A DNA stretch of 64,000 nucleotides from Escherichia phage KEP4. The notes below the pieces were generated by a model that had not been told where the DNA came from, made no database searches, and saw nothing but the letters and a program-made list of their open reading frames with translations. Position numbers and translations under genes: made by a program. Positions 4,905 through 61,562 of this stretch are shown in pieces. Location: sequence record PP047754. One strand, written 5' to 3'. Each line of letters opens with the position of its first letter. Within the stretch, counting starts at the first letter, position 1.

Positions 4905-4909
4905 AACTA

Positions 4910-4946
4910 AATACCCCTAGATGACATGAATACATTTAGGGGTATT
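4910..4946 (+). promoter_or_regulatory. hairpin fused to late-promoter box (CTAAATACCCC at 4907-4917); 10-bp stem aataccccta/taggggtatt
   Basis: perfect inverted repeat 4910-4919 / 4937-4946; right-arm GGGG lies 8 nt before ATG 4951. Confidence 0.6.
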
Positions 4947-4950
4947 ACAA

Positions 4951-21095: not shown

Positions 21096-21420
21096 AAGAT
21101 CTGGGCTTGATATCCGTGGTATCTTGACTGCTGTCGTGGCTTCTGCATTGGTCTCGGCGGCGTCGTTCCTTTGGTTTATGGGTGGGATGGAAACACGCGT
21201 GAATGTATTGGAGCGAGATTCTAATAAAATGGATCAGGTCCTTCAAAAGGTGAATGACATGAGTGAGCGCATGGCGATCATGAATACAGACCTCGCATAT
21301 GTCAAACAAAATATGGCTGAGTTAAAACTCAATAGCAGCAGCCTATCAGACGATGTCCGCACATTGCGGATTACTGTATCTGATTTGCAGCAACGAGGGA
21401 ATAACAATGGCCGTCAATAA
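21079..21420 (+). CDS. hypothetical membrane-anchored coiled-coil protein (113 aa)
   Basis: GAAGGAGG SD; N-terminal TM helix ILTAVVASALVSAASFLWFMGG then coiled-coil-like region. Confidence 0.5.
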   Translation: MATQAERSGLDIRGILTAVVASALVSAASFLWFMGGMETRVNVLERDSNKMDQVLQKVNDMSERMAIMNTDLAYVKQNMAELKLNSSSLSDDVRTLRITVSDLQQRGNNNGRQ

Positions 21421-22159
21421 AATTCGCGACAAGAAATCTTTTATGAACTATGTCTTGCGTAAATTGGGCGCTCCGGTCATCCAAATTAACCTTGACAGTT
21501 CACAAGTAGAAGATGCTGTTGATGATGCTCTACAGAAGTTTTGGGAATATCATCGCGACGGTAGCCAAGATGCGTTCTTCCTGTACCAAGTTAAGCAAGA
21601 AGATATCGACAAGGGTTATATTGAATTCCCAGAAGATATTGACGATGTGATTGAAGTTATCCCTGGACCTCCTATTGAGTCAATTGGAAACTGGGCAACT
21701 CCTCAATGGCAAATGGCCCAAGCCATGCTTGTACCAAAAGCGGCGCTTGTGTCTATTCGTCTCATTGATTACGTTTCCATGCAACAGCGCCTGTCTGATA
21801 TCACAAGCGTCTTGAATGTTCGTCGTAATTTTGTGTACAAGAAGTTCCAGCGACGCCTTTACCCGCAATTTGCTGCCACCATTGATGAAACTCTGGCTTT
21901 CCGTTGTTATCAGAATATCGACCCCGAATCGGAAGAAAACGCTGAAGCATGGAATGACATGTGGTTGAAAGCGTATGCGACTGCATTGGTTAAGCGCCGT
22001 TGGGCAGAGGTGCTTAAGAAGGCAAGAGGCATCCGTCTCCCAGGTGGTATCGAACTGGATGGTGATAGTATGTTCAGTGAGGCCGAGACCGAGATAGAGC
22101 GGTTGGAGGAAGAATTGCGTACTGGTCAGCAATACCCTATCGATTTTATGATGGGATAA
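21407..22159 (+). CDS. neck protein (T4 gp13-like)
   Basis: motifs LRKLGAPVIQINL, FWEYHRDG and C-terminal YATALVKRRWAEVLKKARGIRLPGGIELDG resemble T4 gp13; synteny. Confidence 0.75.
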   Translation: MAVNKIRDKKSFMNYVLRKLGAPVIQINLDSSQVEDAVDDALQKFWEYHRDGSQDAFFLYQVKQEDIDKGYIEFPEDIDDVIEVIPGPPIESIGNWATPQWQMAQAMLVPKAALVSIRLIDYVSMQQRLSDITSVLNVRRNFVYKKFQRRLYPQFAATIDETLAFRCYQNIDPESEENAEAWNDMWLKAYATALVKRRWAEVLKKARGIRLPGGIELDGDSMFSEAETEIERLEEELRTGQQYPIDFMMG

Positions 22160-22162
22160 GAG

Positions 22163-22189
22163 AAGGCGGGATAACCCGCCTTTCTTTTT
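22163..22189. terminator. bidirectional hairpin terminator (aaggcggg-ataa-cccgcctt, T-run on + side)
   Basis: follows gp13-like stop (22159) and overlaps the stop of the convergent minus gene (22188). Confidence 0.7.
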
Positions 22190-22400
22190 ATAACTTGATG
22201 TCGCGTTCGGAAGGATTTGAATTTGCTAGAATATAACCATCAACCACGTTCTTTTCATCCCACCATTCAATAAAATCATTCCCATCTTTGCCTTTAATAA
22301 GACCCACAATGTTATAAGAATTATTTGCGACTTTAGCGTCCACACAGATAATTCTCACACGCCTTCCGTCACGAGTTTCTTTAATATCTTCAACCTTCAT
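22188..22400 (-). CDS. hypothetical small protein (70 aa) on the opposite strand inside the neck module
   Basis: minus-strand ORF with GAGGA SD 9 nt upstream of ATG 22400. Confidence 0.5.
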   Translation of the reverse strand: MKVEDIKETRDGRRVRIICVDAKVANNSYNIVGLIKGKDGNDFIEWWDEKNVVDGYILANSNPSERDIKL

Positions 22401-22431
22401 TTATCAATTCCTCAAAAGAATTAATGATTGA

Positions 22432-22456
22432 CTAAATACCTTCAAAATTGAGGGTA
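22432..22456 (+). promoter_or_regulatory. late-promoter box CTAAATA plus hairpin (taccttc/gagggta) whose 3' arm GAGGG is the SD of the next gene
   Basis: same architecture as the tailspike-upstream elements; 7-bp stem with one G-U pair. Confidence 0.5.
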
Positions 22457-22461
22457 AAGTC

Positions 22462-23103
22462 ATGGCTACTTCAAAATATTTCAACTATACAGCACACCAA
22501 GGTACTCAGAAATTAATTGACGACTTGGTGGTCGAGATGATACAACTACGTGGGATTGACGTCAAGTATATTCCACGTTCCATCGTTGAAAAATACCCAA
22601 TTTTAAACGAGGCTGAACATAAATTCGACCAGGCGTTCGATATCGAAGTATACATGCAAGATTACCAAGGCTTTAACACCCAAATGTGGGAGAAGTTTGG
22701 CGGTATTCAATTACAAGATGAAGTGACGTTCACCATTGCTCGTCGCCGTTTTTCGGAAGTGATTGGTAATGGGCCAGGACTTGAGCAGATGCCTCAAGAA
22801 GGTGATTTGATATACCTCCCAATGGCGAACAAGATATTCAAAGTGAATAACCCGAATAACGACGAAGAATTTATGCAATTCGGTAAATGGTACACATATT
22901 CCTTACCGTGCACGTTGTTCCAATATGGTAATGAAGATTTTGATACTGGTGTATCTGAAATTGACGACATCGATAAACGTTTACAAGATCTAGACGGCGA
23001 TGGTGTCTATAAAGATGCCAGTCTACAGACAGATAACCAATTTGCGGACGAAATAGAGAAAGATCTTTCGCCCAATAAAATGAAGATAGACTTCGGGGAA
23101 TAA
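22462..23103 (+). CDS. neck protein (T4 gp14-like), tentative
   Basis: 213 aa; assigned by position between gp13-like and gp15-like genes. Confidence 0.55.
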   Translation: MATSKYFNYTAHQGTQKLIDDLVVEMIQLRGIDVKYIPRSIVEKYPILNEAEHKFDQAFDIEVYMQDYQGFNTQMWEKFGGIQLQDEVTFTIARRRFSEVIGNGPGLEQMPQEGDLIYLPMANKIFKVNNPNNDEEFMQFGKWYTYSLPCTLFQYGNEDFDTGVSEIDDIDKRLQDLDGDGVYKDASLQTDNQFADEIEKDLSPNKMKIDFGE

Positions 23104-23105
23104 TC

Positions 23106-23804
23106 ATGGCCAGACCATTTGAAAAATATTTCTACCATGAATCGTTGTTGAAATACATTCATGTCTTCAACGCTATCATGTCAGATTTAAAAGTCAAAAC
23201 CGAACGTGGCTTGATGGAAATCCCGCTGCATATGGCTATTGGCCGTCGCAATGACCTCAACAGGAACGTGCCAGCCAATATGCTGCCATTTGCGACTATG
23301 TCCTTCGGTCAATTCGAAATTAATAAACAAGTGACCAAGTCGTATCATAATCAGATATCGACTGCAACTGCGCGGTCCAAACAACGAATTCCGATCATTA
23401 TAGATTTTGAATATAACATCAGAACGAAGAAACTGGTCGAAATGCTACAGGTGTTGGAACAAATTTATTCTGTGTTCACTCCTTCTATTGATTGTCAGAT
23501 AAAAGACAACGATACGTTATCTCAAGATCAAAACGTGAAGATTATGTTGACATCCCATACCATTTCCGATAACTGGGAAGGGGATGCCGCTGAATCACCC
23601 CATATAGATTGCACCTTTAATTTTCAATTACATGGGCACATTTATGGCGAAGATTATTGGGTCGATGACGGCTCTGGCGGTGGTGATCCGAACGTTATCA
23701 AAGAGATAATTATTGAAATGTCTAATGATTTGAACACGCCATGGTCGGAACTGCCTGAGTGGTTCCGAGTTGACAAAGATGGCATACATCATCCGGAGGA
23801 TTGA
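23106..23804 (+). CDS. tail sheath stabiliser / tail terminator (T4 gp15-like)
   Basis: 232 aa; synteny and loose similarity to T4 gp15. Confidence 0.6.
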   Translation: MARPFEKYFYHESLLKYIHVFNAIMSDLKVKTERGLMEIPLHMAIGRRNDLNRNVPANMLPFATMSFGQFEINKQVTKSYHNQISTATARSKQRIPIIIDFEYNIRTKKLVEMLQVLEQIYSVFTPSIDCQIKDNDTLSQDQNVKIMLTSHTISDNWEGDAAESPHIDCTFNFQLHGHIYGEDYWVDDGSGGGDPNVIKEIIIEMSNDLNTPWSELPEWFRVDKDGIHHPED

Positions 23805-23806
23805 TC

Positions 23807-24487
23807 ATGAGCAATATGTCAGAAAGGTTACTTGCGACGCTAGACGCGGTGACTGCCAGAGATGAAGTTGGTAAGGAGGCGATGGAAGCCGTCTCTCCAC
23901 GTCCAGGTATTGACTTCGATGAAAAAACGGGCGAGTGGTTTGGTGAACGCCCAGAAGGTTATCAGCCGATTCCAGAACCTCCATCATTGGAAGATATCGC
24001 GTCCAAAGAATCCAAGGTTCCGGAGTTTGCGGATACTGATGCCACAACAGATTACAAGCGGATACGCGACACAACATATGCCATGCAAGAAGCCACGATG
24101 TTCATGATGGGGCAAGCTGCTAAATTAGCTGCATCTACCGAAGCCCCAAGAGCGTTTTCCGTGTTTCGTGAATTGGGCGAACTCATGCGCGGCCTGAACA
24201 AAGACCTGATGGAAAACCAAAAAACCATCAAAGCTGTGACAGGGGATAAAGAACCGCCGACTGATGACACAACCGTGGATGTTACCACTTCACCCGACGG
24301 GACCACAACAGTATCTGTTGGGAAGAAAGCGAGATCTTCGCGCGATTTATTGAAAACGATCGAAGATGCACGCCGCCGCGCTGAAGAACGCGCCCAGGCA
24401 AAAGCCACCCAACAAACCGAAGATGAAATTATCGACGGAGAAACGGTTGACGTGAAGGAAGAAGACGATGGCGTATCAGAAGCGTGA
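23807..24487 (+). CDS. terminase small subunit (T4 gp16-like)
   Basis: GGAGGA SD 6 nt before ATG 23807 (track start 23801 is TTG); segment MQEATMFMMGQAAKLAAS...FRELGELMRG resembles T4 gp16; directly upstream of TerL and overlapping it. Confidence 0.7.
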   Translation: MSNMSERLLATLDAVTARDEVGKEAMEAVSPRPGIDFDEKTGEWFGERPEGYQPIPEPPSLEDIASKESKVPEFADTDATTDYKRIRDTTYAMQEATMFMMGQAAKLAASTEAPRAFSVFRELGELMRGLNKDLMENQKTIKAVTGDKEPPTDDTTVDVTTSPDGTTTVSVGKKARSSRDLLKTIEDARRRAEERAQAKATQQTEDEIIDGETVDVKEEDDGVSEA

Positions 24488-26678
24488 TATAGAATATGCT
24501 CCGATAAAAACGGGGTTTAAAATCGACGACGTGAAATTGCGTATGGACCAGACGTTCATGCGCAAGCCTTCTGTGCGCGCTCCACGAGTCGAGTTGATGC
24601 TAACAGATGAACAAGAAGACGAATTTGTTGAATGTTCAATGGACGCGCATTACTTCGCTGCCAATTACTATAAGATAACGACAATCGATAAAGGCTTTAT
24701 CCTTTTCGATATGCATGATTATCAGAAACAATTATTTCACGATTTTCAAGATTATCGTTTCAATGCCGTTGTCCAGGCGCGTCAGTCCGGTAAATGCGTC
24801 CGTGGTGATACTCTTGTTTATGTCTATGATACAGTCAGTCAACAAGAGTTGCATCTCACCATAGAAGAGCTTCACAAGCGCTTCGAAGGACCGAACCATG
24901 CTGTGCCACTGAATACCATTGGCAACCACAATAAGTTTGTAGACAGCCGTTTCGGGAAACGATATTTTGTTGAGTCCGACACTGGCTGGGTTCCGGTTAT
25001 TGCCGCTCATAAAACGAAAGAATACGCTGAATACGTGGTCAGGACTGAAACCGGACGCACAATTCATGTCGCAGATGAGCACATGTTCTTCAATGAATAT
25101 GGGCGCGAAGTATTTGCTAAAGACATGGAGGCCGGAGATGCCATAATGACCCAGGAGGGAATAGAATTCATCTCTGAGATCTGGGAGACTGGTGAGTACC
25201 ACCACATGTATGACTTGCAAGTCAAGTCCAGCGATCAACGTTATTACACGAATGGGTTCCTCAGCCATAATACCACGGTCGTGGCTGCGTTTCTTCTTTG
25301 GTATGCGATGTTCCACTCAGACAAAGAAATCGCGGTACTGGCAAACAAAGAGAAACAAGCGATTGAAATTCTTGACCGTATCAGGAAGGCGTATCAGGAC
25401 CTCCCATTCTTCCTTCAGCAGGGTTGTGAGAAGTTTGGTTCTACACTGATAGAGTTTGAGAACGGCTCTAAGATATATGCTTATGCAACGTCTTCGGACT
25501 CTATTCGTGGTCGTTCTGTATCTCTCTTGTACGTGGACGAAGTCGCATTCATCGAAAATGACTTTGAATTTTGGGAATCAACATTCCCAGCGATCGCATC
25601 TGCTGATACTTCACGTTGTATTCTGACCAGTACTCCGAAAGGCCAGCGAGGGTTGTTCTATGATATCGTCACCAAAGCAGACCCGCGCCATCCGCAATAC
25701 AACGACTTCCATCTTACCGAAGTCCCTTGGTACAAGGTTCCGGCGTACACCAAAGACCCTGATTGGGAAACCAAACAACGCGCTCGTCTGGGGGATGCCC
25801 GTTTTGACCAGGAATTTGGAATCAAGTTCCGTGGTTCTGTAGGTTCATTGATACCAGCCAAATGCTTGGATAAAATGACATCCAAGTTATATCGAGAGCC
25901 TAATGAATTCACCAAAATTTACAAGGAATATGACCCGCAACGCATCTACTTCGGGATTGCAGATACGGGGAAAGGTGTTGAAGGAGATTATTCGGTTCTG
26001 ACAATTCTGGATATAACGGAATACCCGCATGTCATAGCGGCCAAGTACAGGAACAATACAATACCTCCGATGATGTATGCATACACGATAGCCGATATGT
26101 GTACTGAATACGGGGAATGCCCTGTCCTTGTAGAAACCAACAACGACGTTGGTGGACAGGTTATTACGATCTTGTATCAAGAAATTGAGTATCCAGAGAT
26201 CATATTCACGTCGACGGATAACAAAGGGACAGGGAAACGGATTGGTGGTCGTAAACCAGAGCCAGGCATTAACACCAACAGGAAAGTGCGATCTATTGGT
26301 TGTGCTAACCTGAAAGCGCTTATTGAGAAAGAAATGTTGGTGATTGAAGATCAAGACACGATAGATGAACTCAGCACATTCGTGTTCCGTGGTGCGCGTT
26401 ATGAAGCAGATGATGGATGTCACGACGACTGCGTTATGCCGTTGGTATTATATTCTTGGGCAGTTAAACAAGAATGGTTCAGTGATCTGACTTCTACCAG
26501 TATTTCTCAAGACATGAGAAATAGAATGTCTTCGACTGAGTCACAACAAGTATTCCCGTTTGGTGGTTTAGTCGTGGGAGACACTCCATCTGGAACTGAG
26601 CATCTCCCTGGGTTCGGTGGTGTTCAAGTCTTCGACGAACGTTCAGGGATGACCATGGATGAGTGGTTTAAGAATTGA
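24468..26678 (+). CDS. terminase large subunit (T4 gp17-like), intein-containing
   Basis: extein reads ARQSGK/TTVVAAFLLW (T4: SRQLGKTTVVAIFLAHF), downstream YVDEVAFI Walker B-like and nuclease region; 736 aa vs ~610 for T4. Confidence 0.9.
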   Translation: MAYQKRDIEYAPIKTGFKIDDVKLRMDQTFMRKPSVRAPRVELMLTDEQEDEFVECSMDAHYFAANYYKITTIDKGFILFDMHDYQKQLFHDFQDYRFNAVVQARQSGKCVRGDTLVYVYDTVSQQELHLTIEELHKRFEGPNHAVPLNTIGNHNKFVDSRFGKRYFVESDTGWVPVIAAHKTKEYAEYVVRTETGRTIHVADEHMFFNEYGREVFAKDMEAGDAIMTQEGIEFISEIWETGEYHHMYDLQVKSSDQRYYTNGFLSHNTTVVAAFLLWYAMFHSDKEIAVLANKEKQAIEILDRIRKAYQDLPFFLQQGCEKFGSTLIEFENGSKIYAYATSSDSIRGRSVSLLYVDEVAFIENDFEFWESTFPAIASADTSRCILTSTPKGQRGLFYDIVTKADPRHPQYNDFHLTEVPWYKVPAYTKDPDWETKQRARLGDARFDQEFGIKFRGSVGSLIPAKCLDKMTSKLYREPNEFTKIYKEYDPQRIYFGIADTGKGVEGDYSVLTILDITEYPHVIAAKYRNNTIPPMMYAYTIADMCTEYGECPVLVETNNDVGGQVITILYQEIEYPEIIFTSTDNKGTGKRIGGRKPEPGINTNRKVRSIGCANLKALIEKEMLVIEDQDTIDELSTFVFRGARYEADDGCHDDCVMPLVLYSWAVKQEWFSDLTSTSISQDMRNRMSSTESQQVFPFGGLVVGDTPSGTEHLPGFGGVQVFDERSGMTMDEWFKN
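24795..25271 (+). mobile_element. mini-intein (159 aa) inserted in the TerL Walker A P-loop between GK and T
   Basis: starts Cys (CVRGDTLV, block A), contains GRTIHVADEH (block B-like), ends FLSHN followed by Thr +1; no homing-endonuclease domain. Confidence 0.75.
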
Positions 26679-26681
26679 TCA

Positions 26682-26688
26682 CTAAATA
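26682..26688 (+). promoter_or_regulatory. late-promoter-like box CTAAATA upstream of the sheath gene
   Basis: immediately after TerL stop; about 40 nt before ATG 26731. Confidence 0.4.
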
Positions 26689-26730
26689 TCTTTCAAATTG
26701 AGCGAAACTCTACCGAGAAGGAATGATATT

Positions 26731-28626
26731 ATGGCAACTCAAAGCTTCAGCGTTGCGCCGTCCGTTCAGTGGACTGAGCGTGATGCCACGCTTCAGACGT
26801 CCCCGTCCGTTGTTGTTCAGGGCGCGACCGTCGGCAAATTTCAATGGGGTGAAGTTGAACTTCCAGTGCTGGTGACTGGTGGTGAGACAGGTTTGGTGAA
26901 GAAATTCTTCAAACCCAACGACAGCACCGCGACCGATTTTCTCGTAATCGCGGACTTTTTGTCTTACAGCTCTATGGCATGGGTGACCCGTGTTGTTGGT
27001 CCTCTGGCCAAGAACTCTGTTACCAAAGGTCAGACAGCGATTGCGATCAAAAACAAACTGGATTTTGAAACAGCAAGTCCTTCGGCGTCCATCACTTGGA
27101 CTGGTCGTTATCCAGGTTCCCTGGGTAATGATATTGCTATCAATGTTTGTGATGCTGCTGGGTTCTCAACTTGGGAATTCCGTAATAACTTTGCATACGC
27201 ACCTCAGTCTGGTGAATTCCATGTAGTTGTCGTAGACAAAGTTGGTCGCATTACCGACTCTGCTGGCGCGGTCGGTCAGGTTGACCGTATCTCCGTTTCT
27301 GGTACGGCTACTGCTGCTGGCACCATCAGTGTGGCAGGTGAAGATATCGCATATCTGGATACTGATACTCCAGCCGATTTGGCAACCAAAATCGGCACAG
27401 CGCTAACTTCCCTGACAAGTGTTTATTCTTCTGTTGTCGTGAAGTCCAACACTGTCATCGTGACACATAAAGCTATCGGTCCTCAGGCCGTTACAGCTAT
27501 CGTTCCTGATGATAAAGGACTGACTGCAACAGCCGTAATCACTACTGTTGGCGCTTCTGGTTCCATCATTGAAAAATACGAACTGATGCAGAACACCCAG
27601 GGTTCTAAAAAATCCGATGGCGCGAATGCGTACTTCAAAGACGTGATCAACGATACTTCAAATTGGGTGTATACCTTCGCGAGCGAACTGGTTGCAGGTG
27701 TCGTTGAATTAGAAGGCGGCGTAGACGATTATAACATCAACCGCGTGGCAGCTATCCAAGTCTTGAACAATGCTGAAGCATATGATGCGAAGCCAGTATT
27801 TGCGTACTGTGAAGAACTGATTGAGCAACAAGCATTGATCGACTTATCTACTGAGCGAAAAGATACTGTATCTTTCGTATCCCCGCTCCGTGATACGGTT
27901 GTTGGCAACCGTGGTCGTGAAATGGATGATGTCGTTGCTTGGCGTGAAAGTCTGGTGCGCGACTCCTCCTATTTCTTCATGGACGACAACTGGGCATACG
28001 TGTACGATAAATACAACGATAAGATGCGTTGGATTCCGGCTTGTGGCGGCACCGCAGGTGTTTGGGCGCGAAGCATTGAAATCGCGGGTATCTACAAATC
28101 TCCGGCGTTCCACAACCGTGGTAAATACAACAACTATAATCGAATGGCGTGGTCTGCGTCTTCTGATGAACGTGCTGTGTTGTACCGCAATCAGATCAAC
28201 AGCATCGTAACCTTCTCCAATGAAGGCATCGTCCTGTATGGTGACAAAACTGGCCTGACCCGCCCGTCGGCGTTTGACCGCATCAACGTTCGTGGTCTGT
28301 TCATCATGGCTGAGCAGAACATCGCCGCAATCGCCAAATACTATCTTGGTGAGAACAATGACGCGTTTACACGTGGTCTGTTCAGCAATGCGGTTCGTCC
28401 ATATATTCGCCAGCTGGCGAATATGGGCGCGATTTACGATGGTAAAGTCAAGTGTGATGAAGATAACAACACTGCTGATGTCATTGCGGCAAACCAAATG
28501 GTTGCTGGTATCTGGTTGAAACCGGAATACAGCATAAATTGGGTGTATCTTGACTTTGCTGCAGTTCGACCAGATATGGAGTTCAGCGAAATCGAATCCG
28601 GTGGCGGCATCGTTGCTGCTTCATAA
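26731..28626 (+). CDS. tail sheath protein (T4 gp18-like)
   Basis: GKFQWGEVELP near the N-terminus as in T4 gp18 (GKFQWGPAFQ); 631 aa; synteny; track start 26698 is TTG. Confidence 0.85.
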   Translation: MATQSFSVAPSVQWTERDATLQTSPSVVVQGATVGKFQWGEVELPVLVTGGETGLVKKFFKPNDSTATDFLVIADFLSYSSMAWVTRVVGPLAKNSVTKGQTAIAIKNKLDFETASPSASITWTGRYPGSLGNDIAINVCDAAGFSTWEFRNNFAYAPQSGEFHVVVVDKVGRITDSAGAVGQVDRISVSGTATAAGTISVAGEDIAYLDTDTPADLATKIGTALTSLTSVYSSVVVKSNTVIVTHKAIGPQAVTAIVPDDKGLTATAVITTVGASGSIIEKYELMQNTQGSKKSDGANAYFKDVINDTSNWVYTFASELVAGVVELEGGVDDYNINRVAAIQVLNNAEAYDAKPVFAYCEELIEQQALIDLSTERKDTVSFVSPLRDTVVGNRGREMDDVVAWRESLVRDSSYFFMDDNWAYVYDKYNDKMRWIPACGGTAGVWARSIEIAGIYKSPAFHNRGKYNNYNRMAWSASSDERAVLYRNQINSIVTFSNEGIVLYGDKTGLTRPSAFDRINVRGLFIMAEQNIAAIAKYYLGENNDAFTRGLFSNAVRPYIRQLANMGAIYDGKVKCDEDNNTADVIAANQMVAGIWLKPEYSINWVYLDFAAVRPDMEFSEIESGGGIVAAS

Positions 28627-28633
28627 AATGACC

Positions 28634-28660
28634 AACCCCGCTTCGGCGGGGTTTTCCTTT
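28634..28660 (+). terminator. rho-independent terminator (aaccccgc-ttcg-gcggggtt + TTCCTTT)
   Basis: 8-bp GC stem, ttcg tetraloop, U-tract after the sheath gene. Confidence 0.85.
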
Positions 28661-28683
28661 GTCTTATTGATTTGAGTTATTGA

Positions 28684-29142
28684 ATGATATACGCATACAA
28701 AATTGAAACGATAACTAATGGAAAGGTCTACATCGGTGTGACCAATCACCCACAACGAAGATATGATCAGCATTTTGCGAATGCTTTTCATCATGGAGTC
28801 CAAAGTGAATTGTATGATGCCATGCGTAAGTATGGAACATCTGGATTTACTTTCGTTGTAATTGCTCAGACCGATGAAGTCCATAAATGGGAATTAGAGA
28901 AGCAACTCATCGCTCAATATAATTCTTATGAGATGGGTTACAACATGAATAAAGGCGGTAATGATGGAAGTCATATGCTGGGTAAAACTGCAGCAAAATT
29001 GACATCTACAGGTGAACACATTGGTCTTGTTTCTCTCATAGATCCCCGTTGGGAATTGTGTGAAATCGAACCCGTTTTAAGCAATGTTGACCACGGATTT
29101 GATTTTTCTTCCATGAAGATTAAAAGATTGACGACTAATTAG
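28684..29142 (+). CDS. GIY-YIG nuclease (free-standing, homing-endonuclease-like; 152 aa)
   Basis: IYAYK...KVYIGVT...RRYDQH...E...YNMNKGG matches GIY / YIG / Arg / Glu / Asn catalytic pattern; inserted between sheath and tube genes. Confidence 0.7.
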   Translation: MIYAYKIETITNGKVYIGVTNHPQRRYDQHFANAFHHGVQSELYDAMRKYGTSGFTFVVIAQTDEVHKWELEKQLIAQYNSYEMGYNMNKGGNDGSHMLGKTAAKLTSTGEHIGLVSLIDPRWELCEIEPVLSNVDHGFDFSSMKIKRLTTN

Positions 29143-29172
29143 AATTGTGTACTCTTATTTGGAGATATAAAA

Positions 29173-29706
29173 ATGGCGACAGTCAATGAGTTTCGCGCAG
29201 CCATGTCACGAGGGGGCGGCGTACAACGCCAACACCGCTGGCGTGTGACTGTAAACTTTCCTTCTTTTGTTGCTGGTTCCGACACAATTCGTGACGTGTC
29301 CTTGCTGGCTGTAACCACCAACACCCCAACAGGTCAGCTGGGCGAAATTCTGGTGCCCTGGGGTGGTCGTGAACTTCCGTTCCCAGGGGATCGTCGTTTC
29401 GAAGCGCTTCCTGTGACGTTCATTAACGTGGTGAACAACGCTCCATACAATGCTTTTGAAGTGTGGCAGCAATTCATCAACGGTAGTGAAAACAACCGCG
29501 CCAGCGCGAATCCAGATGATTATTTCCGTGATATCATCATGGAACTTCTGGACGCGAATGACAACGTGACTAAGACATGGACTTTGCAGGGTGGCTGGCC
29601 TCAAAACCTCGGCCAATTGGAACTCGATATGTCGGCAATGGACTCTTACACACAGTTCACTGTCGACTTGCGTTATTTCCAAGCCGTTTCTGACAAGTCA
29701 TTGTAA
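29173..29706 (+). CDS. tail tube protein (T4 gp19-like)
   Basis: 177 aa; C-terminal WTLQGGWPQNLGQLELD resembles T4 gp19 GLWPTNVGELQLD; GGAG SD. Confidence 0.8.
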   Translation: MATVNEFRAAMSRGGGVQRQHRWRVTVNFPSFVAGSDTIRDVSLLAVTTNTPTGQLGEILVPWGGRELPFPGDRRFEALPVTFINVVNNAPYNAFEVWQQFINGSENNRASANPDDYFRDIIMELLDANDNVTKTWTLQGGWPQNLGQLELDMSAMDSYTQFTVDLRYFQAVSDKSL

Positions 29707-52383: not shown

Positions 52384-52650
52384 TTCTTCAAAAGTCTTTC
52401 AAAATCAATAACGTCCGGCAAAATGCTGGGCGTTTCAATTAATAAGCCAAGGTATAATGGCCCAACTGAAAACGCGGGGGAATTTCTTTGTCCAAGCCAT
52501 TCATTCGTTCCGGAGTTGATTCTCTAGACTCCCAATTTAAGCCGAGCGAAGTTTTAATCCAACAAATTGAAACCAATCGTGAATTCATAGAACACATGTT
52601 GGCAAAGCCGGAAGGTGAAGCCGCTCAAACCACCAAAGAAGGTAATAACG

Positions 52651-54867
52651 ATGATTGAATCATTAACATTTAAAAATGCGGTAGCAACCGTCGCGCCGTC
52701 TAACCATGTAATCGTTGTGGATATCTCCGGTTCCATGTACCGTTCACTTCCTGAAGTTCGCAAGCATCTGAAGGAAAATCTCCCGTCTCTGGTTAAACCA
52801 GAAGATACCGTCAGCATTCTTTACTTTTCATCCCGTGGTGATTTCGGTACGGTATTCGCTGGCCGTCAGATCAATAGCGCGACCGATCTCAGTGAAATCA
52901 ATAAACTGATTGACCGCTTCCTGCAACCGTCCGGTTGTACGGGATTTGTAGAACCTCTGAAGTTGGCTGCTGAAACCGCGTTGAGCCTGAACAAACCTGG
53001 TTATGTCAATAACCTGGCGTTCATGACCGACGGCTATGACAACTGCTGGCGCTCTAATGAAATTCTGGCAGCAGCTGAAGTACTGCCCAAGGCGTTCGAT
53101 AATATTACATTCATCGAATATGGCTGGTATTGTAACCGCGAACTTCTGGCTCTGATGTCCGAGCGTTCTGGCGCGACTCACGTGTTTGCCGAAGGTCAGA
53201 CTGAATATCAGACCGAACTGGAAAACGTACTGAAATCATCTACGCCGAAAGTGGTTGTTGATGTTCCCCTGGTTTACACTCATGCCATCTACGTTGAAAA
53301 CGGCGTGGCAACTGTGCTAGCCGTACAACCCGATGAAGAACACCCGATTGGCCACGTCAGCATCCCTGAAAGCGTTTCTCAGCTGTGGGTTGTAAACCCT
53401 AACATGATCGACCAGCTGGATAATCTGGCAGACACCCAGGCGGCATACGTGCTGGCATTCTATGGCGTGTACACCATGGACGCCGATCTGGTCTGGGCCG
53501 CGCTGAAGAAGACGGGTGACGTCCGCTTCATCAAACAATACAGCAACTGTTTCACCAAGCAGGACTATTCCAACATCAAAGTCGATCTGACCCAGGCTAT
53601 CGTGGATGAAACTCTACGCGGCGTAGATGGCATCGATTACAATATGGTTCCAGCTGAAGATGCAACGACCATTGTTGATGTCTTGACCTACCTGGCCGAA
53701 GCCGATGTCTCTGTTGTCACTAAGCATCCATTGTTCTCTTACAACAGCATCGGTCGCGGCACTGTGCAGAAAGTTGATGACACTGAAGACAAGCTGGCTG
53801 AACAAATCGCCGAAGCCAAAACCAAAGCAGAGCGTAAAGCGCTGGCTCTCAAACTGGCTGAGCACGAAGATTGGACACCGGAATTTACTCCGGTTGATGA
53901 CAAAGGGATTGTCCCAATTAGCAATCTGGTCTACAATTCAGAGCGCCCTAACATCAGCATTCAGACCGTTCAGCATGGGACGGTTGTTGTGCCGGAGTTC
54001 GTACAGAAGAAATATGAACTCCCTGAAGAACTGGGAACCTGGCGTTATCGTAATTACACCATCGTCAAAGATGGAATCATCAACCTGAAGACGATGCCGA
54101 TTACTGCCGAATCTCCGATTGTCCGAGCTAAGGTTGTCCAAGATTTGATCGCCATGGGCGTTAATGTATTTGGTGGACCGGAAATCTTCATCGTTAATTT
54201 AGAAAGCGTTCCGATGGTCAACCGCGCCATGACCAAGAACATCAGTGCTGCCGAATTCTTCGCTGACAACGTTCGTCGCGAAGCGCTGAAGGCAAAACAG
54301 AAAGTTCTGAAATTCTATCGTGATGAACTGGTTGGCAAAGGCAATGCAACTGGTCTGGCTTCTAAATATGGTAAAGAAGCCGCCGATTTCTTGTCGGCAA
54401 ATGGCATTCGCGACTACGGGTTCTCGCCGAAAACTACTTCTGTGGAATCAACCGATGTCTACATGAGCCGTGAGCTGAATGTGAAAATCAAAGGTGCTTC
54501 GTCGCTGCCGAGCATTGCGTCAGTTATCAAAAAGCAAGCAGATGGTAAAAAACTGAATGTCGCTGATCAGTTGATTGCCAATGCTTTGGCCGAATACGAC
54601 GCTTTTGTTAAATCGCCAATGATCACCAGCGTACCTGAAGAGACTCAGAAAAAGCTGATTGAAAGCTGGATCGGGGACGCAGCAAAAGCGGCCATTAACG
54701 AAGTCCGCGCCCTGAACAAAACTCTGTCTAAAGTAGTTTACGGCATCGTCGCTGGTCATGGTTGGTTCACTGATTTGGATCTGGAAGAGTCTACGATGGA
54801 TGTAGAAGTTGATGGGGTGAAATACACCGTCACTGCCGAACTGGCCGAAAAAGAAATCAAAATCTAA
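52651..54867 (+). CDS. von Willebrand factor A (vWA) domain protein, 738 aa
   Basis: N-terminal MIDAS-type motif VVDISGSM with downstream TDGYDN; track start 52615 is GTG; 267-bp untranslated region upstream. Confidence 0.65.
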   Translation: MIESLTFKNAVATVAPSNHVIVVDISGSMYRSLPEVRKHLKENLPSLVKPEDTVSILYFSSRGDFGTVFAGRQINSATDLSEINKLIDRFLQPSGCTGFVEPLKLAAETALSLNKPGYVNNLAFMTDGYDNCWRSNEILAAAEVLPKAFDNITFIEYGWYCNRELLALMSERSGATHVFAEGQTEYQTELENVLKSSTPKVVVDVPLVYTHAIYVENGVATVLAVQPDEEHPIGHVSIPESVSQLWVVNPNMIDQLDNLADTQAAYVLAFYGVYTMDADLVWAALKKTGDVRFIKQYSNCFTKQDYSNIKVDLTQAIVDETLRGVDGIDYNMVPAEDATTIVDVLTYLAEADVSVVTKHPLFSYNSIGRGTVQKVDDTEDKLAEQIAEAKTKAERKALALKLAEHEDWTPEFTPVDDKGIVPISNLVYNSERPNISIQTVQHGTVVVPEFVQKKYELPEELGTWRYRNYTIVKDGIINLKTMPITAESPIVRAKVVQDLIAMGVNVFGGPEIFIVNLESVPMVNRAMTKNISAAEFFADNVRREALKAKQKVLKFYRDELVGKGNATGLASKYGKEAADFLSANGIRDYGFSPKTTSVESTDVYMSRELNVKIKGASSLPSIASVIKKQADGKKLNVADQLIANALAEYDAFVKSPMITSVPEETQKKLIESWIGDAAKAAINEVRALNKTLSKVVYGIVAGHGWFTDLDLEESTMDVEVDGVKYTVTAELAEKEIKI

Positions 54868-54899: not shown

Positions 54900-54911
54900 C
54901 AGGAAATGAAT

Positions 54912-55223
54912 ATGAGCAACAAACCGACTTATGTTGATGTCATGCGCGATTTGGCCCAATACGCATGTGACAACCTGAACATGGAAACTTGGCGCGACGG
55001 CGATCATAAAGAAAAGTTCGATAATATCGACGACAACATCGATGCGTTGGCTCCTCTTCGGGCCAAGAGCGATCTCGGCGGTGATGATCTTGACATGATT
55101 GAACTCATCATGGAAGTTGAAGAACAATATGATGTTGAAATCAGTGATGACTGGGTAGGCAAACATGGTGATGATCCCACGCTCGGCGAATTAGCTGAAT
55201 TGGTAGTTGCCCTCAGCAAGTAA
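54912..55223 (+). CDS. acyl carrier protein-like protein with Asp at the phosphopantetheine-attachment position
   Basis: SDLGGDDLDMIELIMEVEEQYDVEI aligns with ACP helix II ([24 protein letters not shown]) but has D where the conserved Ser lies (codon 55086-55088 gat). Confidence 0.6.
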   Translation: MSNKPTYVDVMRDLAQYACDNLNMETWRDGDHKEKFDNIDDNIDALAPLRAKSDLGGDDLDMIELIMEVEEQYDVEISDDWVGKHGDDPTLGELAELVVALSK

Positions 55224-55583: not shown

Positions 55584-55822
55584 TGTCTAATAAGAAAGTT
55601 GAAACGACGGTAGAAATTGATCGTAATTGGGGATTACTCCGCGCTAAAGGTTTTCGTCGTGTTTATATGACCAAGGAAGTTTATGTTCAGCGTCGCGACG
55701 TTATTATCAGCAAGAAAGGTAAAGAGTGGGTTGCTGAAGAAGTTGACATTGAAACAGGTGTCGTGGGCAAAGTAAAAGCGAAGGCGGCTATTTTGTTTTC
55801 TCTTCTGAAGCATATCAATTAA
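55583..55822 (+). CDS. hypothetical basic protein (79 aa)
   Basis: TAATG overlap with upstream gene. Confidence 0.5.
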   Translation: MSNKKVETTVEIDRNWGLLRAKGFRRVYMTKEVYVQRRDVIISKKGKEWVAEEVDIETGVVGKVKAKAAILFSLLKHIN

Positions 55823-55835
55823 TTCTATAAACTCC

Positions 55836-55863
55836 GGCGGGGTATGATTACCCCGCCTATTTG
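55836..55863 (+). terminator. terminator-like hairpin (ggcggggta-tgat-taccccgcc + TATTTG)
   Basis: 9-bp stem. Confidence 0.6.
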
Positions 55864-55906
55864 AAATTGCAGGAACTTATATCATGATCTCTGTCGAGGG
55901 TATAAT

Positions 55907-56194
55907 ATGACAAAGGAACAAGAACTCGCTTTGTTCTCTATGGTTCGCAGTAATGTTAAATTGAGTTTTAGACAAGTGGACTCCATTATTGATCTTATGA
56001 AAATTAAGAATTCCATAGATAACGATCATTTGCGCACCGCTCTTTTGGGATTGTTGGAATTCGTTTTGCGCGGATCTGATCTTGGACCAGTGAATGATAT
56101 TGACGACCTGACCAAATTGTTAAACACTGGCGGTGATGGTTTCGATACCGCTCGTATTCTGATTAACTGTGGTCCTAACAAAGAAGAGGTATGA
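55907..56194 (+). CDS. hypothetical protein (95 aa)
   Basis: GAGGG SD 6 nt upstream. Confidence 0.5.
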   Translation: MTKEQELALFSMVRSNVKLSFRQVDSIIDLMKIKNSIDNDHLRTALLGLLEFVLRGSDLGPVNDIDDLTKLLNTGGDGFDTARILINCGPNKEEV

Positions 56195-56195
56195 T

Positions 56196-56354
56196 GTGGA
56201 CAAAGATTTGGTTTGGGAAATCGTGAAAGGTATCCTGGTAATAATTGCTGTGGTCTTTATCCTAGGAGGAAACTTCTTCTATTGGTTATTGCGGTATGAA
56301 GAGAAGCGTCGAGAGCGGAAAGAACAGAAGAGAAAAGATCGATGGATGAACTAA
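56196..56354 (+). CDS. small single-TM membrane protein (52 aa), tentative
   Basis: GTG start with GAGG SD; ILVIIAVVFILGGNFFYWLL then KRRERKEQKRK tail. Confidence 0.3.
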   Translation: MDKDLVWEIVKGILVIIAVVFILGGNFFYWLLRYEEKRRERKEQKRKDRWMN

Positions 56355-56386
56355 CTAAGGGATAACCCTATATCCCGAGGTGTGTC

Positions 56387-56836
56387 ATGTTTCTTACATC
56401 CTTTATTGACTGGATGAATATCATAAATGGCCTGAGGATTCCTGTTGGGAATCTTGGGCTTTCTCGTTCTTCTATGCCGCAAATCGATACCGACAAACAA
56501 GAAGATTTTCACAAATATCTTGAAGACAACGGCGTGTCCATAGATGCTGCGCAAGTGCCCATCAAAATGCTTCGTCTTACCCAGAACGAAATCAATAAAA
56601 TGAAGGTCTGGAAGATCATGAAGCAAATCAGAAATAAGAAACCTATGGGTAGAGTTTGGGTGTCTTCTGACAATTACGTTGTTGACGGTTCTCACCGATT
56701 TGTCGCTGCGTTGAACATGGATGGTAAACAGCGCATGAAGGTCTACAAAGTTGATTTGCCTGCGATGGAATTCGTAAAACTCGCCAAACAATTTCATGGT
56801 GTGCGGTACAGAACGGTCAGCGATACCCGTTTCTGA
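56387..56836 (+). CDS. ParB-like nuclease domain protein, tentative
   Basis: VVDGSHRFVAA matches the ParB/sulfiredoxin-type DGxHR motif; GAGG SD. Confidence 0.45.
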   Translation: MFLTSFIDWMNIINGLRIPVGNLGLSRSSMPQIDTDKQEDFHKYLEDNGVSIDAAQVPIKMLRLTQNEINKMKVWKIMKQIRNKKPMGRVWVSSDNYVVDGSHRFVAALNMDGKQRMKVYKVDLPAMEFVKLAKQFHGVRYRTVSDTRF

Positions 56837-56915
56837 ATACGATAGTTTATTGAAACCCTTTACTCAACATGGTGAGTCGACTATCATTTTATCCAATGAA
56901 ATAAGGAGAATCACC

Positions 56916-57605
56916 ATGAAACGTTTAATCCTCGGGGTTGTGCTGGCAGGTCTGGCATTACCCGCCGCCGCCAAGCTGAACTCCACAGGTGACAAACTGT
57001 GGTCTGATCTTTCCTACTGTGCTGGGTTCTCCCAGGCGGTCGCTATCGACAAGTCCGGTTCCATAGAGAATTTCGCTGAACTTTGGAACACGGGTAACGT
57101 CTCCACTGCTGTTGTTAATGCTGGGATTGAGTTCAACCGTTACAAACAGGGAGCCTACAACTTGAAAGGCTACCTGAATGACGATGAATTTAACCGAGGA
57201 GGCATGGAGGCTGGCGATCTCATCATGACTGGCCGTATGGGCACACAAGGCCGTATGACTGTAAGGCAATGCCGTTCTCTCCCCTCTCCGGCATTACAGA
57301 AGGGTGTGCAAATCGGGCGTCGACATTTGGATCTGATCAATGATGGCAACCAATGCATCAAGGTGTTTGAATATAGTGCCGACCAAGAATCAGATCGACG
57401 TTTGAAAAAGGAATGGCGGACACGTGCCCTTGGATTGAGAGCATGGCTCGTAGAAAACGATTATTACTACGAGGATCGTGTTCAGAACGGATTGAAAGAT
57501 CTTTCTACTAATTTGTCTGTCAATCTAGACGACCCAAGGCTTTCGCGTGAACTCAAGCAAACACGGATTGACTGCGACAATATGATGAAGGAGAACGAAA
57601 GATGA
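56916..57605 (+). CDS. exported protein with signal peptide (229 aa)
   Basis: AAGGAG SD; MKRLILGVVLAGLALPAAAK signal peptide; track start 56796 overlaps the upstream gene. Confidence 0.55.
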   Translation: MKRLILGVVLAGLALPAAAKLNSTGDKLWSDLSYCAGFSQAVAIDKSGSIENFAELWNTGNVSTAVVNAGIEFNRYKQGAYNLKGYLNDDEFNRGGMEAGDLIMTGRMGTQGRMTVRQCRSLPSPALQKGVQIGRRHLDLINDGNQCIKVFEYSADQESDRRLKKEWRTRALGLRAWLVENDYYYEDRVQNGLKDLSTNLSVNLDDPRLSRELKQTRIDCDNMMKENER

Positions 57606-57922
57606 GAAACATAATATTCTTGTTATTCTTTTCTATGTTGGCATCATTCCAAGTTGTGGCAACTCCGGCTAGCAAATTGAATATCTGTGCGGCCTGGTTG
57701 TCTACTTATCAACAATTTCACCCTGATGATAAAGATACATCCATCCTTTTATCAGATTATGAAGGTGAGTTGAAACGCCTTGATCTCTACAGCGTGGATC
57801 AAATAGAGAATGCTTTGGATTTGCCAATGATGGAGTCCGCTGCCGACAATAGCAAACAGACGATCAAAGATCTGACTATGTGTCGGGAAATAGCGACTAA
57901 TTTCGTTGGAAATCAAAGATAA
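57602..57922 (+). CDS. small exported protein with signal peptide (106 aa)
   Basis: AGGAG SD; MRNIIFLLFFSMLASFQVVA signal-like N-terminus; ATGA overlap with upstream gene. Confidence 0.5.
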   Translation: MRNIIFLLFFSMLASFQVVATPASKLNICAAWLSTYQQFHPDDKDTSILLSDYEGELKRLDLYSVDQIENALDLPMMESAADNSKQTIKDLTMCREIATNFVGNQR

Positions 57923-57972
57923 TTTTCAGGTTAAAATTTAACTTCCATTGAACTGAAAGGAAATACTTCGTG

Positions 57973-58935
57973 ATGATTATTACTAAAAAGATCGCCGAAT
58001 CGATCGTTGAAAAGAATAAGATGTTCGCGCCCAACAAAGCAAAGGTCATTCTGATTCACGAAGACGGGCGCGTCATCTTCGCTGAGAAGTTTGAGCAGGG
58101 TTGTGCTTTCTGGTTCGCAGATACTATGCGCGAAAGCAAGCTGCAGGGCATCATCTATAAATTGACTCTGGTTGCCAAGCGCAATGATCAGGGTGATTGG
58201 GTTACGGTCTGCGATTTCAGCTCTAAAGTTGAAACTAAACCCAAAACCCGCCAAGAAAGGATTTTAGAGGCTCAGGAAAAACTTCGAGTCGCTCGCACAT
58301 CATCCGCGGAGAAGCCGGAAATCAAACCAGCCGTTATGCCTGTCACCAAACTGCCTCCAGTGAGTGAAAAATCTGTTGAGCAGTACGCCGAGAAGCGCAA
58401 GGGTGACGGCATGTCTGTTTCTAAGATGTGTAAGATTGTTGAGCCTTTTAAGGGCGATTCTCCACATGAGCCGAATCCAGTATCTGAATCCCAGCGTTTG
58501 GTGAAACTGGAAGACGGCCATGTTGTGGAGAAGTCTGTTTTGACAGTAGAACCGTTCTTTCCAGATACAGCAAAAGTCAAATCGCTGGCTGAAAAAGTTC
58601 ACGGTTCAGAATTCATCTCCCTGCGCGAACTCGAACCACCTACCCGCCGCCGGATCGCAAATGAGTTATTTGTGTCTTTCAGACCTGACGGGAAGATCAT
58701 CCTGTGTAAAGCCCTGCGGGATTCTCTACCTTGGACAACCTTGAACATGGTAGTGACACGCGACTTCAATAGATTCGGTATCATGCAAGGCAAGGATTAC
58801 AACGTTAACCAGAGCGGCACTTACGTCAATCGTGCCATGTGTTCCAAGTTGGTCTTCCCTGAAGATACCGGAACCATACGTGTTCGTTTAGAATGGGATG
58901 AAACCCTGAACATGTATGTTGGTGATATAAAATAA
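57973..58935 (+). CDS. hypothetical protein (321 aa)
   Basis: ORF only; GTG 57970 is an alternative start. Confidence 0.55.
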   Translation: MIITKKIAESIVEKNKMFAPNKAKVILIHEDGRVIFAEKFEQGCAFWFADTMRESKLQGIIYKLTLVAKRNDQGDWVTVCDFSSKVETKPKTRQERILEAQEKLRVARTSSAEKPEIKPAVMPVTKLPPVSEKSVEQYAEKRKGDGMSVSKMCKIVEPFKGDSPHEPNPVSESQRLVKLEDGHVVEKSVLTVEPFFPDTAKVKSLAEKVHGSEFISLRELEPPTRRRIANELFVSFRPDGKIILCKALRDSLPWTTLNMVVTRDFNRFGIMQGKDYNVNQSGTYVNRAMCSKLVFPEDTGTIRVRLEWDETLNMYVGDIK

Positions 58936-58947
58936 TTCAATAACATT

Positions 58948-58978
58948 AAGGCGGTTATTATTAAACCGCCTTTTATTT
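58948..58978 (+). terminator. rho-independent terminator (aaggcggtt-attatt-aaccgcctt + TTATTTG)
   Basis: 9-bp stem plus U-rich tail. Confidence 0.75.
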
Positions 58979-60565: not shown

Positions 60566-60771
60566 TCGGATTAATTCGTTACCTGTTCATATTCGTAATT
60601 TCAACATTCATTTTATTTTTCTTTTTCAAATACTTGAAAGAGACTAAAATCTACCGAAGTAAACGTTGGCGCAAACGGGTGAGGGTAACTTTCCTGCTGC
60701 TGATTTCTTCGGTTACAATAACCGCACTCACATTGGGTGCATATATCTACATTTTTGAAGGGGTACATTGA
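60562..60771 (+). CDS. small membrane protein with two TM helices (69 aa); holin-like topology
   Basis: two hydrophobic segments separated by KETKIYRSKRWRKRVR; ATGA overlap. Confidence 0.45.
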   Translation: MIGLIRYLFIFVISTFILFFFFKYLKETKIYRSKRWRKRVRVTFLLLISSVTITALTLGAYIYIFEGVH

Positions 60772-61562
60772 TGTTCAAGAAATTGGTGTTCGGTGCAATT
60801 ATGGTTCTGGCTGCAAGTCTACTTTCTGGTTGTGGCGGCGTTATCGATGAAGGTAATGTCGGCGTTCGCACCCAATGGGGTGAAGTAGACATGAACCCTG
60901 TAACAGCGGGGATCTACACCAGCTTTGTTTCAAGCGTGGATGTTTACACGACCAAAGAAGCCGTTGTGAGTCTGACTAAAATGACGCCAAAGGCCAAAGA
61001 CAACCTGACTCTGGAAGACTTGGATGTGGATGTTTATTACACACCCAATGTCGCAAAGGTTCCGTGGTTCCATACCAAATTTGCTGGCCAGAGCGCCGAA
61101 CTCGATGATGGCACGATAGCGGTGGGTTTCAATCTAGTTAAAACTGCTGCAGCATCTTCTTCGATGGACGCCGTTTCTTCTCTTGATTCTATGACAATTC
61201 ACACCCAACGTGCTGAATTAGAGAAGATGATTAAAGACCGCACTCAGCAACAATTAGAGACTGCTGCGCCTGGCATGTTCACAATCACACGCGTGTTGGT
61301 CAAAAAGGCGCTGACGGATCCTTCTATTGAGCAGTCTATCCGTGATAATGTTATGGCGGACAAACGATTGGATACGGCAAGAAAGAACGTTGAAATTCGC
61401 GAGCAAGAAGCCCAAGCGAACCAGAAACTGACCACTTCGCTGACGCCTGAATATCTTCAACATGAATATAACATGGTATTACAATCATGTGCCAATAGTG
61501 GAAAATGTACTCTGATCGTTGACGGATCCGGCTCAGGTAAAATGCTGAACGTCGGCAAATAA
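60771..61562 (+). CDS. lipoprotein with SPFH/band-7-like domain, tentative
   Basis: signal plus lipobox MVLAASLLSGC; GNVGVRTQWGEV resembles the SPFH domain start; GAAGGGG SD. Confidence 0.5.
   Translation: MFKKLVFGAIMVLAASLLSGCGGVIDEGNVGVRTQWGEVDMNPVTAGIYTSFVSSVDVYTTKEAVVSLTKMTPKAKDNLTLEDLDVDVYYTPNVAKVPWFHTKFAGQSAELDDGTIAVGFNLVKTAAASSSMDAVSSLDSMTIHTQRAELEKMIKDRTQQQLETAAPGMFTITRVLVKKALTDPSIEQSIRDNVMADKRLDTARKNVEIREQEAQANQKLTTSLTPEYLQHEYNMVLQSCANSGKCTLIVDGSGSGKMLNVGK

Follow-up and report, generated by a model that had tools for sequence, protein, structure and literature searches.

The ParB/sulfiredoxin (ParB/Srx) fold is shared by CTPases, ATP-dependent reductases, kinases and DNases, and the exported proteins known in T4-type phages include Spackle, RI and the spanins. 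Spackle and RI of T4 are early periplasmic proteins that mediate superinfection exclusion or lysis inhibition. Phage-specific ParB/Srx modules of the polyvalent type, among them the P1 DdrB-like ParB, have the same fold, occur as solo proteins or within giant LPD proteins (Iyer et al. 2017), are virion-associated and are presumed to enter the cell at infection; such delivery has been proposed for 'polyvalent proteins' with ParB modules (PMC5512222). Here we analysed three consecutive genes in a 64,000-nucleotide (nt) stretch of Escherichia phage KEP4 (PP047754; the window), which encode a ParB-like protein of 149 amino acids (aa) and two proteins with predicted signal peptides, SP1 and SP2. 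An earlier note on this DNA had presented them together as a ParB-like nuclease followed by two exported proteins. Our analysis favours, with a probability of about 0.6, two unrelated modules: a packaged ParB-fold protein and a coupled periplasmic SP1-SP2 pair. The earlier note missed the association of the ParB-like protein with virions and the spanin and lipoprotein labels already attached to SP1 and SP2.

In 25 of 29 loci the ParB-like, SP1 and SP2 genes stand together. The other four, which are the most distant of the ParB-like loci, have neither SP1 nor SP2, and some of their different neighbours look like genes for a helicase, a topoisomerase and an exonuclease (judged by eye from the translations, with no database search). 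By tblastn the ParB-like family was found in 431 phage records (Ackermannviridae together with phages of Vibrio, Aeromonas, Stenotrophomonas and Ralstonia); for SP1 and SP2 the counts are 271 and 277, and all of these records are Ackermannviridae of enterobacterial hosts. The presence of the ParB-like gene without SP1 and SP2 in distant phages, together with the differing types of putative promoter and the differing predicted destinations of the products, indicates that the three genes are not one unit, and their grouping in the earlier note is not retained.

The ParB-like protein and its association with virions

The three genes and the DGSHR motif of the 149-aa protein are as the earlier note described them, with open reading frames (ORFs) at the coordinates of Table 1. 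The motif (codons 100-104, nt 56684-56698) corresponds to the phosphate-binding loop of the ParB/Srx superfamily, which follows strand 3 and reads GxxR, GERRxR or DGxHR. The ParB assignment had been tied to conservation of this motif in homologues, and D100, G101, S102, H103 and R104 do not vary among 40 homologues with identities down to 39%, nor do an LTQNExNK motif and an N-terminal PVGxLxxSRxxMPQI block. Across the wider family the invariant residues are R27, M30, P31, Q32, Q66, D95, D100, G101 and H103; the D, G and H of DGSHR are thus kept, whereas part of the family has Q or T in place of the R. The N-terminal extension, with its invariant R-x-x-M-P-Q motif, is specific to the family.

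An AlphaFold2 (AF2) model of the protein (pLDDT 83, pTM 0.78) was compared with the PDB by Foldseek, and the top matches were all ParB/Srx proteins, namely pNOB8 ParB-N, Noc, sulfiredoxin, ParB-CTP, SbnI, SerK and PadC, which confirms the ParB/Srx fold for approximately residues 55-145. On the basis of this model the protein is a divergent member of the superfamily. Its sequence identity to sulfiredoxin, SerK, SbnI, pNOB8 ParB-N, Noc and the ParB N-domains is 10-20%, and unlike those proteins as a group it has no helix-turn-helix (HTH) or dimerisation domain, no ParA partner and no match to Pfam ParBc. No Pfam model matched it at E<=1, NCBIfam and PADLOC gave no significant match for the ParB-like protein, SP1 or SP2, and sequence searches of the PDB (with single sequences, and with a profile for the ParB-like protein) returned chance matches only. 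Relatives of the protein gave sub-threshold Pfam matches to ParBc_2 (E=0.0025) and ddrB-ParB (PF18763; E=0.027-0.073). In PHROGs the protein belongs to phrog_2859, of unknown function, with a weak match to ParB-like partition proteins (E=0.0018). The word 'nuclease' in the earlier note is a family nickname only, with no Pfam ParB model over threshold.

Two more specific assignments were rejected. A canonical partition ParB was ruled out because the protein consists of the N-domain and the N-terminal extension only, with no HTH and no C-terminal dimerisation domain, and because no ParA-like gene lies in the neighbourhood. Membership of the DdrB-like ParB family (PF18763) failed on score (best 15 bits against a cut-off of 27.6), and hhalign comparisons with P1 DdrB (probabilities 0.15% and 0.24%) and with the DarB N-terminus were negative; the R-x-x-M-P-Q extension also sets the protein apart from DdrB-ParB. 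By analogy with the superfamily, the ParB-like protein most likely binds or hydrolyses a nucleoside triphosphate (NTP) through its DGxH(R) pocket, and nuclease activity is possible on the same analogy.

Structure matches in BFVD cover the whole protein, including the N-terminal extension (TMq ~0.7), and form two groups: solo 'ParB/Sulfiredoxin' proteins of several phages, and segments of very large phage proteins. The domain was detected by tblastn within a 3867-aa protein of Klebsiella phage ZX1 (E=1e-7), which also has SLT, helicase (ResIII/Helicase_C), methyltransferase (MTS), GNAT and LPD39 domains, and within a 3164-aa protein of Ralstonia phage Claudette (E=1e-6), which has SLT, LPD3 and LPD38 domains. 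These domains are hallmarks of polyvalent proteins, and the giant proteins that carry the ParB-like domain (3,000-3,900 aa, in podophages) begin with a lytic transglycosylase. A solo homologue adjoins the genes for a baseplate hub and an internal virion protein. The ParB-like protein, itself missed by Pfam models, is a new member of the phage virion/polyvalent ParB modules. We also observed that the family adjoins NAD-salvage genes (NMN adenylyltransferase, NAMPT, NAPRTase) in Acidovorax phage ACP17 (L042), Stenotrophomonas phage Ps15 (L041) and locus L006, and that the BFVD match A0A6J5M804 is a fusion of the ParB-like domain with a cytidyltransferase-like domain. These neighbours and the fusion hint at a nucleotide- or NAD-related ligand.

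The evidence for virion association is published mass spectrometry of close homologues, not of the phage in the window. Virions of LIMEstone1 yielded 5 peptides from the 17.31-kDa product of ORF102, covering 35.6% of a protein reported there as an 'unknown structural protein' (PMC3296691); the computed mass of the LIMEstone-type homologue is 17.30 kDa, and the RefSeq note of phage bering names the LIMEstone1 ORF102 protein as its match. According to the LIMEstone authors, ViI has a structural counterpart for every structural protein that they class as unknown (PMC3296691). The Sajous1 homologue, gp192, was detected with 11 spectra in CsCl-purified virions (PMC10892097). For SP1 and SP2, the examined portions of the virion mass-spectrometry table hold no entries.

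Upstream of the ParB-like gene lies the motif ACTAAnTA, a putative late-promoter element (Table 1). It has 13 matches in the window against 6.05 expected. Of the 11 matches on the + strand, 9 are followed at a distance of 23-42 nt by a start codon, and in eight of these cases the gene is a virion gene (1612-aa structural protein, neck, sheath, tube, portal, small head ORF, scaffold or major capsid protein). The remaining one is that of the ParB-like gene, the sole match in the non-structural half of the window (34-64 kb). A stretch of about 40 nt in front of the ParB-like genes, including the motif, is kept across Ackermannviridae, also in loci that have unrelated sequence farther upstream. 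The late-promoter motif of T4, TATAAATA, shows no enrichment in the window (2 matches, with 2.4 expected), and ACTAAnTA was taken instead as the likely late-promoter element of the genus Kuttervirus. The very conserved leader that follows contains an inverted repeat whose GGGATA/TATCCC arms are conserved across loci and genera, with a loop that varies in length and sequence. Its predicted RNA fold (-11.6 kcal/mol, z = -1.63 against shuffles) is not significant and no compensatory changes were seen across loci; the repeat may be a hairpin of the 5' untranslated region or may serve to bind a protein. From the mass spectrometry and the motif together we infer that the gene has a late promoter and that its product is packaged. 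The ParB-like protein is most likely packaged in the virion and delivered with the DNA, injection being one step further removed from these data.

The SP1-SP2 pair

Both leaders, MKRLILGVVLAGLALPAAA in SP1 and MRNIIFLLFFSMLASFQVVA/TP in SP2 (Cys-free; a slash marks the predicted cut), have an n-h-c architecture with small residues at -3/-1. Homologues with leaders of quite different sequence retain small residues at these two positions (AWS/E, ASA/A, ANA/G, VLA/T, ARA/D, AQA/A), in agreement with the earlier claim that both products carry signal peptides; these calls combine heuristic rules with conservation across homologues. The strongest argument for cleavage is that an AXA-type site is kept before the mature sequence while the sequence and length of the leader diverge freely. 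In SP1 the leader has 16 uncharged residues up to a conserved P-A-A-A/K site, which favours cleavage over a transmembrane anchor. The mature proteins have conserved cysteines in all full-length homologues, four in SP1 (C35, C119, C147, C220) and two in SP2 (C29, C94), and these even numbers fit disulfide-bonded periplasmic proteins. Mature SP2 is acidic (pI 4.5) and has 3 prolines in 86 aa. The distant homologues P0108, P0109 and P0115 and their downstream partners also keep cleavable-type leaders and cysteines. Periplasmic localisation of SP1 and SP2 is reasonably supported by these sequence features.

A rule-based leader scan of all ORFs of at least 50 aa preceded by a Shine-Dalgarno sequence in the 64-kb window flagged eight candidate starts in seven ORFs, and the only flagged ORFs that match genes annotated in the inspected relatives are SP1, SP2 and one SPFH lipoprotein, which indicates that the signal is not a chance feature of the genome. 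The earlier statement that exported proteins are uncommon in a virulent phage holds for this window, with about three such genes in 64 kb, but not for T4-type phages in general, where they are well known. The SPFH/band-7 protein (Table 1) has a textbook lipoprotein signal, MFKKLVFGAIMVLAASLLSG/C, and its gene is the only one in the window with a convincing lipobox; in the more compact relatives L006 and L030 it lies one to three small genes downstream of SP2, and 3 spectra were reported for it in Sajous1 virion preparations.

The SP2 leader is hypervariable among homologues P0071-P0107, with at least six unrelated types of 20-33 aa on a mature domain that is 64-100% identical. These include a version with an IAGC lipobox (Maynard/Ag3 group) and a long hydrophobic version (Klebsiella phages), and from this diversity membrane attachment seems to be an evolvable option in the SP2 family.

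An exhaustive HMMER search with the SP1 profile in 1.84 billion representatives gave 10 matches, all from the same narrow family. SP1 belongs to phrog_4260, of unknown function, and SP2 to phrog_3843 ('Rz-like spanin'). Wherever both genes were found in the loci examined they are adjacent and overlap by 1-4 nt. In the window the SP2 start overlaps the SP1 stop as ATGA, an arrangement by which SP2 is judged to be translationally coupled to SP1. Both hexamers of the sigma-70-like candidate in the ParB-SP1 intergenic region hold their position in Kuttervirus, Limestonevirus-like and Klebsiella/Serratia-phage loci (TTTACT-17-TACTAT in the last), and the spacer sequence differs. The interval from the ParB-like gene to SP1 showed no terminator-like site; the hairpin of that type beyond the gene that follows SP2 is likely the 3' end of the SP1-SP2 transcription unit. 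The neighbours of the pair include a gp17-like superinfection-exclusion gene, a LysM protein and the SPFH lipoprotein. T4 Spackle (gp61.3), RI and SP2 are all proteins of about 100 aa from T4-type phages with N-terminal export signals, but no similarity of SP2 to the other two was found by sequence or profile. From the T4 analogy and these neighbours, our guess is that SP1 and SP2 act in superinfection exclusion or in modification or protection of the envelope.

Alternative readings of the three genes

In many GenBank and RefSeq records SP1 is labelled 'i-spanin' and SP2 'o-spanin', 'Rz-like spanin' or 'putative lipoprotein', which would make the pair a canonical two-component spanin. As in lambda Rz/Rz1 and T4 PseT.3/PseT.2, the genes are adjacent or overlapping, here with the large one before the small as in separated or overlapped spanin pairs, and the products are envelope-targeted and have conserved periplasmic cysteines; the SP2 of the Maynard/Ag3 subgroup moreover has its lipobox. 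In contrast to those spanins, SP2 here has no lipobox ([LVI][ASTVI][GAS]C was looked for), SP1 has no convincing transmembrane domain, its hydrophobic stretch being short and always followed by AXA, and no lysis genes or cassette lie near the pair, which appears to sit behind a sigma-70-like promoter among early-type genes. Distant SP2 homologues and 29 of 36 SP2 clusters also lack the lipobox cysteine, these clusters having a conserved SPase I site (for signal peptidase I) instead, and mature SP2 appears to lack the proline-rich character of lambda Rz1. The labels derive from similarity-based notes for phages Marshall and Maynard, and the only sequence link to Rz/Rz1-type spanins is the PHROG label. 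Kongari et al. (PMC6139136) list Vi01, SFP10, Maynard (lipobox included), SJ2, SJ3, CBA120, ECML-4, AG3 and RC-2014 as spanin-less, and their supplements have no entry for these phages, consistent with that listing; the Mutine announcement found no spanin reliably identifiable. A canonical spanin is therefore very improbable, and SP1 and SP2, whose spanin labels are not supported by sequence, appear to be an orphan periplasmic pair mislabelled in databases. It is also improbable, with a small chance of being right, that the pair is a non-canonical outer-membrane disruption system, soluble or variably anchored, that replaces spanins in enterobacterial Ackermannviridae. These phages lyse Gram-negative hosts with no recognised spanin or disruptin, all 271-277 enterobacterial records keep the tightly coupled pair, and Kongari et al. 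(PMC6139136) explicitly allow other topologies. Any membrane activity of SP1 and SP2 is however purely conjectural, SP2 is acidic where the phiKT disruptin is cationic, the sigma-70-like promoter suggests expression before lysis, and Vibrio and Aeromonas relatives have the ParB-like gene without the pair, in a comparison that covered these three genes. Nothing relevant came from the literature when transcriptomes of Ackermannviridae, or later studies of how its spanin-less members lyse their hosts, were looked for.

For the ParB-like protein the alternative is an intracellular enzyme, such as a DNase acting on host DNA, a nucleotide-metabolism enzyme or a replication factor, whose detection in virions reflects contamination. 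The DNases, kinases and NTPases of the superfamily, the replication and nucleotide-metabolism neighbourhood of the gene, the relatives next to or fused with NMN adenylyltransferase or NAMPT genes and the modest spectral counts, for which the authors warn of contaminants (PMC10892097), would all agree with this. Against it stand the independent detection in two virion proteomes (LIMEstone1 and Sajous1, with ViI added by the LIMEstone authors), a late-type motif otherwise common only to structural genes, the homologous domain in polyvalent proteins that start with a lytic transglycosylase, and the solo homologue beside baseplate hub and internal virion protein genes; we consider an intracellular enzyme unlikely, while granting it an appreciable chance. 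That all three proteins form one system, for example a DNA-acting protein with periplasmic partners, would suit their contiguity and the lack of a predicted terminator between ParB and SP1, but it is extremely improbable given the broader ParB-like family, the unlike promoters and destinations (virion against periplasm), and the mobile genes found between ParB and SP1 in some relatives. One of these is PS5_70, an extra gene of ~830 nt (4506-5339) in PS5 (L002), and the gap is also longer in L015 and L021. Other relatives have a gene for a denV-like pyrimidine-dimer glycosylase at a distance of a few genes upstream, and the stretch is an insertion hotspot among relatives.

Under the preferred reading of two modules, the ParB-like gene would be transcribed from the late-type promoter, and its product would be incorporated into the virion and then delivered into the cell with the DNA. 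There its DGxH(R) pocket would bind or hydrolyse nucleotide, as elsewhere in the superfamily, and the protein would probably have an early-infection or anti-defence function on DNA. SP1-SP2 would probably be transcribed from the sigma-70-type promoter, and the proteins would be exported by Sec, cut by SPase I and probably disulfide-bonded. Mature SP1 (~24 kDa) and SP2 (9.7 kDa) would then be soluble in the periplasm, likely acting together, and we conjecture that they modify or protect the envelope of the infected cell, e.g. by superinfection exclusion of the Spackle/RI kind. Several points weigh against this reading. Nucleotide binding and a possible nuclease activity are argued from superfamily analogy and injection is presumed, and the low-count virion mass spectrometry may include contaminants, as its authors note (PMC10892097). 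Both promoter assignments, late-type and sigma-70-like, are read from motifs. Cleavage of SP1 is predicted from rules and conservation, and the protein may instead keep an uncleaved anchor; its AF2 model (pLDDT 41) is too poor to judge fold or coiled coils. Finally, 7 of the 36 SP2 clusters, those of the Maynard/Ag3 subgroup, do have the lipobox, and hhalign of SP2 against T4 Spackle and RI gave probabilities of 6.2% (leader only) and 0.3%, with no PHROG cross-match.

Surroundings of the locus and significance

Positions 55800-58300 of the window match a large number of Kuttervirus (Vi01-like, Ackermannviridae) genomes at 99-100% identity, e.g. at 100% Salmonella phage vB_SentM_sal1 (MT499896.1), and the window is identified from this as Kuttervirus DNA. 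The three ORFs each lie behind a good ribosome site (Table 1), and a longer form of SP1 starting at 56796 uses a start found in no SP1 homologue. The sal1 gene coordinates are in register with the window only around the ParB-like/SP1/SP2 locus and are shifted in the structural region, so the promoter-to-gene distances were recomputed on the window itself. Positions 21000-29200 are not collinear with MT499896.1, with gene starts displaced by up to ~700 nt; the tail sheath is one ORF here, where sal1 annotates two sheath coding sequences, and a GIY-YIG gene lies between the sheath and tube genes. A homologue of the von Willebrand factor A (VWA) protein encoded upstream of the ParB-like gene was detected in LIMEstone1 virions (6 peptides), which makes it a second unexpected packaged protein just upstream of the ParB-like gene.

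Table 1. Coordinates of genes and predicted elements in the window
Feature	Position (nt)	Strand	Details
ACTAAnTA upstream of start codons	15915, 22431, 26681, 29134, 29741, 31463, 32681, 33600, 56350	+	motif match
Tail sheath gene	26731-28626		one 631-aa ORF
GIY-YIG gene	28684-29142		
VWA protein gene and acyl-carrier-protein-like surroundings	52615-54867, 54906-55223	+	VWA protein of 750 aa; small acyl-carrier-protein-like genes on its flanks
Small single-pass membrane protein gene (phrog_14464)	56169-56354	+	directly upstream of ParB-like gene; 3' end abuts conserved promoter-like element
Putative late-promoter (-10-like) motif ACTAAnTA	56350..56357	+	ACTAACTA; 29 nt upstream of ParB-like start codon
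Leader before ParB-like gene	56358-56386	+	AGGGATAACCCTATATCCCGAGG; holds inverted repeat GGGATA/TATCCC
Inverted repeat GGGATA-ACCCTA-TATCCC	56359..56376	+	between ACTAAnTA motif and Shine-Dalgarno sequence
ParB-like gene	56387-56836	+	149 aa, pI 9.9; ATG 56387 behind GAGGTG
Sigma-70-like promoter candidate TTTACT-17-TATCAT	56859..56887	+	ParB-SP1 intergenic; 9/12 matches in consensus scan, weak alone
SP1 gene	56916-57605	+	229-aa precursor; ATG 56916, AAGGAG 7 nt upstream
SP1 predicted Sec/SPase I signal peptide	56916-56972	+	aa 1-19; site AAA/K; mature 210 aa
SP2 gene	57602-57922	+	106-aa precursor; GGAG upstream of start
SP2 predicted Sec/SPase I signal peptide	57602-57661	+	aa 1-20; site VVA/T; mature 86 aa
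Intrinsic-terminator-like hairpin	58948..58972	+	9-bp stem then T-run; 3' of next gene (57970-58935)
SPFH/band-7 protein gene	60771-61562	+	predicted lipoprotein

These findings are not surprising enough to overturn current views. The ParB-like subfamily is invisible to Pfam ParBc, and surveys of the fold based on PF02195 (e.g. PMC12704722) are expected to miss it. The protein connects the modules of injected polyvalent proteins with a virion component that stands alone in large myophages, and offers a tractable small model for ParB modules at the onset of infection, in a phage with hypermodified DNA; ACTAAnTA, for its part, is usable as a late-promoter signature for the genus. Hundreds of Ackermannviridae records, many of them from therapy candidates, carry spanin labels on SP1 and SP2 that the sequence does not support, and these labels hide the unexplained outer-membrane disruption in the family. 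If SP1-SP2 perform the outer-membrane step of lysis, this would answer how the 'spanin-less' enterobacterial Ackermannviridae leave the cell; in the less dramatic alternative, SP1-SP2 would be a new periplasmic superinfection-exclusion pair.

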